Under the pieces are notes generated by a model that did no database searches, was not told the origin of the DNA, and worked only from the letters and a program-made list of their open reading frames with translations. DNA of 44,482 nucleotides, from sequence record PQ384582.1. One strand, given 5' to 3'. The position numbers and the translations under genes are program-made. Positions within the stretch are counted from its first letter, which is position 1, and the number at the start of each line of letters is the position of its first letter. Positions 16,832 through 19,820 of this stretch are shown piece by piece. The DNA comes from Escherichia phage EcoPhCCP1.

Positions 16832-16980
16832 CAATGTTTGTATTTTGGACGATAGTAACCATGCTCGCACTGTTACTCGGCGCTGGAATAGCTGCGATGT
16901 TCTGTTATGGCCTGTTCTTTAAGTTTTTCGGTGTTGCCGTTCTCGGTGGAGCTTTCCTTACTTGGATTCTGCGGTCGTGA
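16828..16980 (+). CDS. small membrane protein
   Basis: ATG 16828 (MTMFVFWTIVTMLALLLGAGIAAMF...), two hydrophobic segments. Confidence 0.4.
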   Translation: MTMFVFWTIVTMLALLLGAGIAAMFCYGLFFKFFGVAVLGGAFLTWILRS

Positions 16981-17261
16981 CTAAAGAGGGCCGCGTACAG
17001 AAATACGCAAAAGAGCGATTCGAGGCCATTGGCGGCCTCGTTCGTAAACTGTCTTATGAGGGGCGTTCCGGCGCCCCTGACCTGCTGGTAATTCTCCCCG
17101 GGGGCATCGTCTGGTTCGTCGAGGTGAAGAAAGACGAAAACACGAAGCCAGACCCGCACCAGTTACGGGAACACGGGCGGATGCGTAAACGCGGTGCAAA
17201 TGTTTTTGTCGTTGGTTCGTTTAAACAGGTTGACGACCTAATAGCGAACTATTATAGTTAA
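16962..17261 (+). CDS. VRR-NUC domain nuclease
   Basis: PDLLVILPGG...VWFVEVKK matches the VRR-NUC (PD-(D/E)XK) pattern; non-ATG start (TTG 16962 or GTG 16977). Confidence 0.6.
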   Translation: MDSAVVTKEGRVQKYAKERFEAIGGLVRKLSYEGRSGAPDLLVILPGGIVWFVEVKKDENTKPDPHQLREHGRMRKRGANVFVVGSFKQVDDLIANYYS

Positions 17262-17291: not shown

Positions 17292-17483
17292 ATGAAACAC
17301 GAATATGATCGCAAACCAGCACGTGACATCGTACCTGGCGACATGATTTTCAACGTTAAGACTCGCCGTCCTGTTGCCGTTGATACGGTGTTCGTCGAGT
17401 CGAACGGTAAACTGGTTATCGAAGATGTAACGGGAAACGTTACGGCGTTCGGGCGTAAAGAGTTAGTTCTGGTGCTGAAATGA
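17292..17483 (+). CDS. hypothetical protein
   Basis: ORF track; ATGA overlap with the methyltransferase start. Confidence 0.45.
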   Translation: MKHEYDRKPARDIVPGDMIFNVKTRRPVAVDTVFVESNGKLVIEDVTGNVTAFGRKELVLVLK

Positions 17484-18403
17484 ACTATTACAACGAATGG
17501 GATAAAGGCGCAGCCGCGTGGCTGCGCGAATTAATAAAACAGGGTCTCATACCTTTTGGAGTTGTAGATGAAAGAAGCATTACCGAAATTAGACCAGAAG
17601 ACCTTGACGGGTTCACCCAGTGTCATTTTTTCGCTGGTATCGGCGGCTGGCCTCTCGCGCTCAGACTTGCGGGAGTTTCGGAAGATACGCCTCTCTGGAC
17701 GGGAAGCCCGCCTTGCCAACCGTTTAGCGCGGCAGGAAAACAACTCGGACAGTTCGACCCGAGACACCTCGCGCCAGTCTTCCTCGACCTCATCAGCGAG
17801 TGCCGCCCTCCAGTCCTCTTTGGGGAACAGGTTGCGCCAGCAATTGCAAAATCGTGGATGTGCGATTTACAAACTCACCTGGAAGGAGAAGACTACGCCG
17901 TCGGGTTTGCCGTACTCCCAGCTTGTGGCGTCGGCGCACCGCATAAAAGAGAGCGACTCTTCTTTGGTGCGTACCAACTGGCCGACACCGACAGCGAACG
18001 ATTACAAAGGGAGCGGAGAGACAGTGATTCGCAAGGACGGGAAGGACAGAACATTCGACAGGCTGGACTACTCAACGGAGCAGGGACTGAAAGCGGCATG
18101 GGGGACGCCGACGGTTCAGAATTCGCGTCACGGCAGCTACAGCGAGGCGGAAACAAAAAGAGACCCGAACAATCTGCACAATCAATGCTACCTCGTGGTG
18201 GCAATCCGAATCGCAGCTTCTGGTCGGATGCTGACTGGCTCGGATGCCGTGACGGAAAATTTAGGCCAGTTGAACCCGGCACATTCCCGCTGGCTAATGG
18301 GATACCCGCCAGAGTGGGACGATTGCGCGGTTACGGCAATGCTATCGTCCCGCAAGTAGCTGCCGAATTTATAAAGGCGTTTATGGGGGCCATAAATGAG
18401 TAA
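17480..18403 (+). CDS. DNA (cytosine-5)-methyltransferase, apparently frameshifted
   Basis: Frame of 17480: motif I FAGIGG, IV PPCQPFS, VIII HKRERLFF, X GYGNAIVPQVA; frame of 17568: WPTPTANDYKGSG, WGTPT and LNPAHSRWLMGYPPEWDD. Confidence 0.7.
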   Translation: MNYYNEWDKGAAAWLRELIKQGLIPFGVVDERSITEIRPEDLDGFTQCHFFAGIGGWPLALRLAGVSEDTPLWTGSPPCQPFSAAGKQLGQFDPRHLAPVFLDLISECRPPVLFGEQVAPAIAKSWMCDLQTHLEGEDYAVGFAVLPACGVGAPHKRERLFFGAYQLADTDSERLQRERRDSDSQGREGQNIRQAGLLNGAGTESGMGDADGSEFASRQLQRGGNKKRPEQSAQSMLPRGGNPNRSFWSDADWLGCRDGKFRPVEPGTFPLANGIPARVGRLRGYGNAIVPQVAAEFIKAFMGAINE

Positions 18404-19820
18404 GTTTCAAAGGCGCGAGTACCAGAAGCTCATGACCTCGTTCATGTTGCAACACCATCGCTGCAACATATGGGCAAGCATGGGCGCTGGGAAGACTGGC
18501 AGCGTACTGTGGGCATTAAACCGACTGTTCCGCAACGGCCAACTTAATGATGACGACCGCGTGTTAATACTCGCCCCGCTGCGCGTTGCGTCCGGCACAT
18601 GGCCCGCAGAACAAGAGAAATGGCGATTCCCGTGTCTGAGTGTCGTAGATGCGACCGGTTCAGAGAAGCGCCGCATCGCGGCGCTGGAGTCGGACGCTAA
18701 CGTGGTGTGCACCAACTACGAAGTTATCGAGTGGCTGATTGACTACTATGGCAAAGACGACTGGCCTTTTACGGTCATCGTTGCCGATGAGAGCACGAAA
18801 CTGAAATCATTCCGCAGCCGTTCAGGTGGTAGTAAGAGGGCGAAGGCGCTCAGTAAGGTGGCATTTGGAAAGGTTAAGCGTTTTATTAACCTGACGGGAA
18901 CGCCGTCACCGAACGGCCTCAAAGACTTGTGGGGTCAGAACTGGTTTATCGACGCGGGCGAGCGACTCGGGTCTTCTTACACAGCATTCACCGACCGCTG
19001 GTTCAACTCGGTACAGAAAGGAAAATCGGCTATGGCGCGCGAGTATCACGCCCGCCCGGGTGCAGATACTGAGATTCACCAGAAGATGAAGGACATTAGT
19101 CTCACGATTGACGCTGCTGAGTGGTTTGGGTGTGAAGCCCCGATTATTGTACCGGTTGAAATCGACCTGCCGAAGAAAGCGCGTCAGGCTTACATCGATA
19201 TGGAGGAGAAGTTATTCGCGGAACTGGAGAGCGGAGAAGTTGAAGCGGCTAACGCGGCGGCGAAGACGTCGAAGTGTTTGCAGATTGCGTCTGGTGCCGT
19301 GTATGTGTCGGGGCCTGATGGCGAAGCAACGAAAGACTGGGAGAAGGTGCACGACACGAAACTGGATGCGCTTGAGTCCATTGTTGAGGAGTTGCAGGGT
19401 GCGCCATTACTGGTAGCCTATCAGTTCAAGCACGAACTGGAGCGCATCCTTAAGCGATTCCCGCAGGCGCAGGCGTTTGCCAAAGGTGCTAAGGGTAATA
19501 AGCAGATGGACGCGTGGAACCGCGGCGAGATAGAGATTTTGTGTGTACATCCTGCGTCAGCCGGGCATGGTTTGAATTTACAGGACGGCGGACACCATCT
19601 GGCGTTTATTTCGCAAGGCTGGAACCTTGAACACTATTTGCAGGTTGTTGAGCGTATAGGCCCAGTGCGCCAGAAGCAGGCCGGGCATGGGCGCCCTGTG
19701 TTCCTGTATCACATAGTCGCTAAAGACACGCTGGACGAGGTTGTTGCCGCGCGTACGGACGAGAAGAAATCGGTACAGGAAGAGTTGCTTAATTACATGA
19801 AGAGAAGGAGTAAGAAATGA
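18396..19820 (+). CDS. SNF2-family (DEXH-box) helicase
   Basis: Walker A GAGKTG, DEST box, LTGTPSPNGLKDLW (motif III) and C-terminal GHGLNLQ / QVVERIGPVRQ helicase motifs. Confidence 0.8.
   Translation: MSKFQRREYQKLMTSFMLQHHRCNIWASMGAGKTGSVLWALNRLFRNGQLNDDDRVLILAPLRVASGTWPAEQEKWRFPCLSVVDATGSEKRRIAALESDANVVCTNYEVIEWLIDYYGKDDWPFTVIVADESTKLKSFRSRSGGSKRAKALSKVAFGKVKRFINLTGTPSPNGLKDLWGQNWFIDAGERLGSSYTAFTDRWFNSVQKGKSAMAREYHARPGADTEIHQKMKDISLTIDAAEWFGCEAPIIVPVEIDLPKKARQAYIDMEEKLFAELESGEVEAANAAAKTSKCLQIASGAVYVSGPDGEATKDWEKVHDTKLDALESIVEELQGAPLLVAYQFKHELERILKRFPQAQAFAKGAKGNKQMDAWNRGEIEILCVHPASAGHGLNLQDGGHHLAFISQGWNLEHYLQVVERIGPVRQKQAGHGRPVFLYHIVAKDTLDEVVAARTDEKKSVQEELLNYMKRRSKK

Follow-up and report, generated by a model that had tools for sequence, protein, structure and literature searches.

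Natural C5-cytosine methyltransferases that are composed of two polypeptides have been described. In M.EcoHK31I (Escherichia coli HK31, YGGCCR) the beta chain has its entire coding sequence inside the alpha gene in another reading frame and contains motif IX (PMC2836561, PMC3404938); activity depends on both chains, and internal start codons are used for beta (PMC2836561). The predicted recognition domain of this enzyme is assigned to the alpha chain in the literature (PMC2836561, PMC3404938). M.AquI (CYCGRG) is a further natural two-polypeptide C5-methyltransferase, the chains of which must associate (PMC3404938). It is split in the variable region, with alpha containing motifs I–VIII and beta the distal variable region together with motifs IX and X. 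Here, we analyzed a methyltransferase locus of Escherichia phage EcoPhCCP1 (PQ384582.1), the whole stretch of 44,482 nucleotides (nt) being referred to as the window. Two open reading frames (ORFs) are nested on the same strand of this locus: ORF B is wholly enclosed by ORF A and is read in the +1 frame relative to it, and both frames are open. The phage is a Kagunavirus-like E. coli siphophage and its methyltransferase gene is 94.6% identical to the counterpart in phage ZCEC5. It is highly probable that a two-subunit (heterodimeric) C5-cytosine methyltransferase is encoded by the locus in two nested genes on the same strand, alpha (ORF A) and beta (ORF B), and not in one interrupted gene.

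The nested alpha/beta architecture of M.EcoHK31I is the same as the one found here, a likeness that is drawn from published descriptions, and the EcoHK31I name is absent among the database matches listed for the alpha and beta families. Reportedly, the alpha chain of M.EcoHK31I has 309 amino acids (aa) and its beta chain 176 aa, which makes its alpha close in size to alpha of the phage (307 aa) and its beta shorter than beta of the phage (263 aa). However, in the phage locus the region of alpha between motifs VIII and X is unconstrained and predicted to be disordered, and it is beta that contains conserved, exchangeable modules. Moreover, M.EcoHK31I is part of a restriction-modification system, whereas the phage gene is an orphan within a replication-gene cluster. 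With M.AquI the locus shares the proposed organization as a two-polypeptide C5-methyltransferase, but here the putative motif X is located on alpha, the coding sequence of which encloses beta completely. The monomeric enzymes M.HhaI, M.HaeIII and E. coli Dcm (PF00145) have motifs I and IV–VIII and the fold of the large domain in common with alpha, whereas alpha is without the in-chain recognition domain and motif IX of these enzymes. The lambda genes Rz and Rz1, which overlap (PMC11445585), and the tail chaperone G/GT are also cases in which a single piece of phage DNA yields two products in two frames. Rz1, as beta, has a start of its own and is nested in the +1 frame. In contrast to these pairs, the overlap of ORF A and ORF B measures approximately 790 nt, approximately 290 nt of it are constrained in both frames, and the products would be parts of one and the same enzyme. 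While this kind of architecture is already known from EcoHK31I, the scale of the family appears to be under-appreciated. In the open-access literature that was searched, no link between the phage enzymes and EcoHK31I was found, including for the name 'Mte8', and searches on overlapping genes and recoding returned no description of this phage methyltransferase family.

The layout of the two frames is conserved in relatives. Hidden Markov models were built for the N-terminal part of A, the C-terminal part of A and the core of B, and the three forward frames of each locus were searched with these models. A first set comprised 88 loci (80 from IMG/VR, 7 phage records and the window) and a second set 83 loci (80 bacterial genomes from many phyla and 3 phages). 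The B core was found in frame A+1, and the C-terminal part of A back in frame A, in 88/88 loci and then in 83/83 (171/171), and alpha is a single unbroken ORF in 86/88 and 82/83 loci. Of what the first-pass annotation of the window had expected from such a three-frame profile search, the change of frame is recovered (B as A+1, then return to A), the shift within a single gene is not. Carriers of the layout include Kagunavirus, N15, Pseudomonas, Rhodobacter, Xanthomonas and Acidobacteria phages as well as prophages of many bacterial phyla, and the phages ZCEC5, K1G and K-01 contain the same pair of open frames. Furthermore, when the conserved part of B was used as a tblastn query, 248 phage records were matched. 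For N15 gene 58, RcDora, PhiXhv-18, HdK5 and XAP3 the B match lies +1 of the annotated methyltransferase coding sequence, and for PMG1 and Tunturi_1 the annotated coding sequence is the B frame, the catalytic domain being located in an unannotated frame. A single-frame fusion of A and B was found neither among the 171 loci nor among the phage tblastn matches, including the weakest of them (HdK5, XAP3, Tunturi_1). Similarly, PF00145 was present in frame in 0/10 scanned beta representatives (ten of the longest among the top 150 clusters); this Pfam scan resulted in one DUF2800/PD-(D/E)XK fusion, one Dam fusion and eight proteins without a match. The ORFs of the beta-family representatives P0139 (497 aa) and P0137 (758 aa) run in frame into a Dam N6-adenine methyltransferase (PF05869) or into DUF2800/PD-(D/E)XK, and these extensions may be real fusions or gene-call run-ons. 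The sole interrupted alpha frame among the 83 loci of the second set belongs to the Arsenophonus endosymbiont of Aleurodicus floccissimus (L135), which is probably a prophage copy undergoing decay in the genome of an endosymbiont.

Next to the conservation of the layout, purifying selection can be assigned to the individual frames. The entropy by codon position, computed over 77 non-redundant loci, shows alpha-type periodicity at 17480–17779 and 18329–18403, with alpha third-position entropies of 1.3–1.8 versus 0.3–0.9 at the first and second positions in 17480–17779. At 17780–17930 this periodicity is lost and the alpha third positions are constrained (entropy 0.77–1.2). B-type periodicity is observed at 18200–18230 and 18290–18320, and at 18230–18290 the entropy is very low at all three codon positions (0.25–0.46 at 18260–18290). 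The substitutions between the window and ZCEC5 point in the same direction. Over gene nt 491–735, 13 substitutions are non-synonymous in A and synonymous in B and one is synonymous in A only, next to two that are synonymous and two that are non-synonymous in both frames. Over nt 736–790 the pattern is reversed (six synonymous in A only, one synonymous in B only), and nt 791–845 contain no substitution. The first-pass annotation had regarded the middle third of the intact-looking 307-aa ORF as out-of-frame translation and had read this part in the frame of 17568, which is also open (263 aa). This is borne out: the middle third of ORF A is not a conserved protein, and the functional frame of approximately 17970–18214 is the +1 frame (13 versus 1 substitutions).

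As a control, the protein of one frame was kept fixed, its codons were resampled and the identity of the other frame was measured. In the zone 17780–17959 the excess over the forced identity amounts to +0.24 to +0.29 for B and +0.35 to +0.39 for A, and in the zone 18215–18328 to +0.39 to +0.41 for both frames. The alpha-only zones show an excess of +0.06 to +0.10 (17480–17779: +0.06 for the B frame), which is small and due to the relatedness of the loci. Resampling and entropy together indicate that approximately 180 and 110 nt, i.e., approximately 290 nt, are under selection in both frames. Moreover, stop codons are avoided in both frames. Given the B protein, approximately 3.5 stops are expected in the middle of frame A, and this middle is open in 77/77 loci versus 3.0 expected; for the window alone, fixing the B protein and resampling its codons gives P=0.0014 for an open frame A over 17970–18200. 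Given the A protein, the N-terminal extension of beta is open in 71/77 loci versus 25.5 expected. This shows that the alpha middle is unconstrained in sequence yet kept stop-free by selection, and the view that both frames merely happen to stay open does not hold.

At the level of sequence, a translation start of its own is supported for beta. In the window, the elements of this start, GGAG-N6-ATG, are spelled within the alpha codons G27-V28-V29-D30-E31, and embedded start codons recur in relatives at alpha codon index 29, 35 and approximately 91. In relatives in which alpha R32-S33 spell (A)GGAG, mostly as AGG-AGC, an ATG is present at index 35 in 31/31 loci, and R32 is encoded by AGG in 26% of loci versus approximately 8% at other invariant Arg positions. 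A minority of loci (L004, which is the N15 gene 58 region, L012 and L078) have stops in the N-terminal extension of beta, and these loci have instead a strong Shine-Dalgarno sequence and an ATG approximately 13 codons upstream of the beta core; in N15 this alternative start is GGGAGG...ATG at alpha codon ~91. The alternative starts in the N15-like loci suggest that long and short beta isoforms occur across the family.

ORF A has the features of the catalytic part of a C5-cytosine methyltransferase. Motif I (F51AGIGG, 17630–17647), motif IV (P77PCQPFS, 17708–17728, with the catalytic Cys79 at 17714–17716), motif VIII (H155KRERLFF, ending at 17965) and motif X (G284YGNAIVPQVA, from 18329) had been located in the frame of 17480 by the first-pass annotation, and every coordinate was verified. 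PF00145 matches ORF A with 59.7 bits (cut-off 22), the match being confined to residues 74–167 and profile positions 66–163 of 324, with 39 bits the score for TIGR00675, the dcm model of NCBIfam, stays below the cut-off of 100.65, and phrog_363 (labelled DNA methyltransferase) is matched over the full length. Using phmmer, alpha aligns with motifs I and IV–VIII of M.HhaI: FAGIGG and PPCQPFS, both invariant among 36 homologues, pair with FAGLGG and FPCQAFS, motif VI GEQV pairs with MENV, and PHKRER of motif VIII with PQKRER. E116, R157 and R159 of alpha are invariant among homologues, and YGNAIVPQVA, the putative motif X, is invariant across the alpha family; a phmmer search of the PDB with the alpha C-terminus returned nothing relevant. 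Aligning the alpha family to E. coli Dcm by hhalign recovered motifs IV–VIII (E=4e-5), with motif I collinear but weak. In the AlphaFold model, residues 1–166 and the C-terminal helix 291–306 are confident, the latter with a predicted local distance difference test (pLDDT) score of ~90, and residues 170–241 are disordered (pLDDT 26–43). The best Foldseek neighbours of the model are HhaI, HaeIII, DNMT1 and DNMT2. An in-chain target-recognition domain with motif IX between motifs VIII and X is not found in alpha, because residues ~165–245 are unalignable among homologues, unconstrained in frame A and predicted to be disordered. The alpha middle is a low-complexity stretch (RERRDSDSQGREGQ...), and the linker in the reading of ORF A includes LQRERRDSDSQGR. 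In ZCEC5, a substitution yields a TAA (L001:2386–2388, ~18365–18367 here) that makes alpha 12 codons shorter, the protein being annotated with 295 aa; either alpha does not need its extreme C-terminus or the ZCEC5 copy is impaired.

ORF B matches phrog_1008 (labelled DNA methyltransferase) over its full length and has no match in Pfam and NCBIfam. None of 5574 database homologues of beta has a Pfam domain, and the family, with 10149 representatives of 50%-identity clusters, is covered by no Pfam family; its members range from Proteobacteria to Acidobacteria, Bacteroidota, Planctomycetota and Verrucomicrobiota. In phage K1G both ORFs carry an annotation, ORF A as 'C-specific methylase' and ORF B as 'Mte8-like' or 'DNA methyltransferase'. 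In frame B the window reads W138PTPTANDYKGSG at 17979, W178GTPT at 18099 and L235NPAHSRWLMGYPPEWDD at 18270–18323, the last resembling motif IX (LNPAHSRWLMGYPPEW); these three segments had been placed in the frame of 17568 before, and their coordinates are correct. Further upstream, within the first zone that is coding in both frames, the beta reading in the +1 frame is SAALQSSL...IYKLTWKEKTTPSG...ASAHR. Related beta proteins contain one to three modules of the type (L/A)GWPTP.A.D.KG each, and the conserved beta core has approximately 188 aa. A DNA alignment of four phages revealed that the region of the second WPTP module (18093–18214) is missing from K1G, which is 99 nt shorter, and that K-01 has a different, unrelated WPTP module in this cassette, which is 21 nt longer. 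The length differences of the cassette are all multiples of 3 and the flanks are >93% identical. As judged from these sequences, the cassette exchange suggests a recombinational swapping of methylation specificity among Kagunaviruses, and a second module that is exchangeable among near-identical Kagunaviruses fits the expectation for a specificity determinant.

For the mechanism we propose that alpha would be translated as one continuous 307-aa chain providing the AdoMet-binding and catalytic large domain (motif I, motif IV with Cys79, motif VI and motif VIII), a disordered linker of ~75 residues and the motif X helix. Beta would be initiated independently at the internal GGAG-N6-ATG in the +1 frame and would bring what alpha lacks, i.e., the WPTP modules for target recognition and the motif-IX-like segment. 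Alpha and beta would then assemble into an active enzyme methylating the phage DNA, the target sequence of which would be set by the exchangeable modules of beta, with protection from host restriction as its presumed role. Several observations weigh against this proposal. The C-terminus of beta conforms to the motif IX spacing pattern (L-x-P-x5-LMG-[FY]-P) by eye only, the best hhalign alignment of the beta family with E. coli Dcm is spurious and leaves the motif IX of Dcm unaligned, and searches of the PDB with the beta profile and the beta C-terminus, as well as of Pfam, returned nothing or spurious matches. The AlphaFold model of beta alone has a mean pLDDT of 45 and is unreliable. On the side of alpha, motif X is collinear with QFGNSVVVPV of E. 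coli Dcm, but the match is weak (hhalign, E=0.17). Furthermore, the 171/171 loci are phylogenetically related and these counts are not fully independent, the production and pairing of alpha and beta are predicted here from the genes, and a minor frameshifted fusion product may be made besides alpha and beta.

Alternatively, a single polypeptide might be produced by programmed recoding, with a +1 frameshift after motif VIII (~17966–17976) and a −1 return before motif X (~18324–18328), as had been considered for this locus before. By eye, the spliced A-B-A protein has the canonical order of motifs I, IV, VI and VIII, recognition domain, IX and X, and the middle is selected in frame B only. However, such a shifted product would need neither the frame A that is open in 77/77 loci nor the frame B that is open far upstream, and constraint acts on B already upstream of the proposed shift (17780–17959) and on A already upstream of the proposed return (18215–18328). 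Splicing also brings no gain for PF00145 (58.6 versus 59.7 bits) and only ~5 residues would separate motifs IX and X. No conserved shift site is present: a search for slippery heptamers returned none at 17900–18000, and the length of the junction following motif VIII varies (27% gaps). A_AAT_TTA at 18257–18263 in the beta frame is the single −1 heptamer of the window and probably occurs by chance, because ZCEC5 (AAATTCC) and K1G (AAGTTCC) do not share it. Moreover, B is equipped with a Shine-Dalgarno sequence and an ATG of its own, and a DNA methyltransferase is not among the cases in the accessible part of a comprehensive recoding review. Together, this makes recoding very unlikely. Assembly indels or a frameshifted pseudogene have practically no probability left. 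One E. coli prophage homologue is called as two 'incomplete' pseudogene pieces by PGAP and the endosymbiont copy L135 is genuinely interrupted, but 171 loci from distant taxa, each sequenced independently, have an identical frame structure, with purifying selection and stop avoidance in both frames, and artefact or decay was refuted by the comparative data, by ZCEC5, K1G and K-01 and then by 171/171 loci. The earlier interpretation as one interrupted gene is at odds with the ribosome-binding site and ATG of ORF B and with a layout that is kept throughout these loci; it is thus partly supported, the frame assignment of the middle being right and the mechanism wrong.

A further possibility is that beta is separately translated and is not a subunit of the methyltransferase, acting for example in DNA binding, regulation or anti-defence and merely sharing the DNA of alpha. 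Such a role would agree with the lack of any detectable sequence or profile similarity of beta to solved C5-methyltransferases or PF00145 and with its uninformative predicted structure. On the other hand, beta co-occurs obligately with alpha in a fixed register (171/171 loci), and nothing in alpha is conserved between motif VIII and the segment preceding motif X, so that alpha alone would have no recognition domain. By eye, the C-terminus of beta has the spacing pattern of motif IX; in the manner of recognition domains, the module cassette of beta is swapped between near-identical phages, and with EcoHK31I there is a precedent for a nested subunit. A function of beta outside of the methyltransferase is therefore quite improbable, and the reading as a heterodimeric enzyme from two nested genes is preferred. 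Whether this reading can be extended is an evenly balanced question: there may be a large and ancient phage and prophage family that is obligately two-subunit in all members, with beta nested in the +1 frame, ~290 nt under dual selection and the recognition domain in beta, the 'variable region' of alpha being a stop-free by-product of beta coding.

With respect to annotation, standard pipelines appear to mishandle this family, PGAP usually giving alpha only and sometimes pseudogene fragments. In the prophage of E. coli Ec1117 (NZ_CP126602.1, L171:2879-4048), RefSeq/PGAP splits alpha into two 'incomplete' pseudogene fragments, both in the same frame, and leaves beta unannotated; in other E. coli genomes a single 'DNA cytosine methyltransferase' is annotated. 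With a nested pair that is real and under selection, the apparent frameshift should neither be labelled a pseudogene nor be 'corrected', and the beta ORF deserves annotation. If the extended reading is true and has remained unrecognised, these pairs would rank among the largest and most ancient known examples of same-strand gene overlap in double-stranded DNA phages, and thousands of 'DNA cytosine methyltransferases' would be systematically mis-described by Pfam/PGAP annotation. The specificity determinant would reside in a separate subunit that swaps cassettes, which bears on the prediction of the host restriction systems that are evaded. Moreover, the family would offer naturally split methyltransferases for the engineering of targeted methylation, for which M.EcoHK31I is already used, and ~290 nt with a two-frame constraint over a deep phylogeny provide a large natural data set on the origin and persistence of overlapping genes.

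Table. Coordinates of the nested methyltransferase genes and of their zones in the window.
Feature	Coordinates	Strand	Basis or content
ORF A (alpha), C5-cytosine methyltransferase catalytic subunit	17480..18403	+	307 aa; PF00145, phrog_363, M.HhaI alignment, AlphaFold/Foldseek
ORF B (beta), proposed target-recognition subunit with motif-IX-like C-terminus	17568..18359	+	263 aa; phrog_1008
Internal beta translation start: GGAG 17558-17561, 6-nt spacer, ATG 17568-17570	17558..17570	+	sequence
Alpha-only coding zone with motifs I and IV	17480..17779	+	codon-position entropy, resampling
Dual-coding zone 1	17780..17959	+	alpha motif VI (GEQV, 17822-17833) and motif VIII (HKRER, from 17942)
Beta-only zone with target-recognition modules (L/A)GWPTP.A.D.KG at 17979 and 18099	17960..18214	+	substitution classes, stop avoidance
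Exchangeable cassette within beta	18093..18214	+	four-phage DNA alignment
Dual-coding zone 2	18215..18328	+	beta ...ASGRMLTGSDAVTENLGQLNPAHSRWLMGYPPEWDD (motif-IX-like, 18270-18323); alpha FWSDADWLGCRDGKFRPVEPGTFPLANGIPARVGRL
Alpha-only zone with motif X (GYGNAIVPQVA) and C-terminal helix	18329..18403	+	alpha-type codon periodicity; model

The neighbouring genes are closely spaced. The ATG of alpha overlaps the stop codon of an upstream ORF of 63 aa (17292–17483) in the sequence ATGA at 17480–17483, and the ATG of the downstream gene, encoding a helicase of 474 aa (18396–19820), is located at 18396 and overlaps the final codons of alpha. An ORF of 99 aa further upstream (16962–17261) is a Holliday junction resolvase according to the annotation of K1G and K-01, and the methyltransferase pair is thereby embedded in a tightly coupled string of genes.

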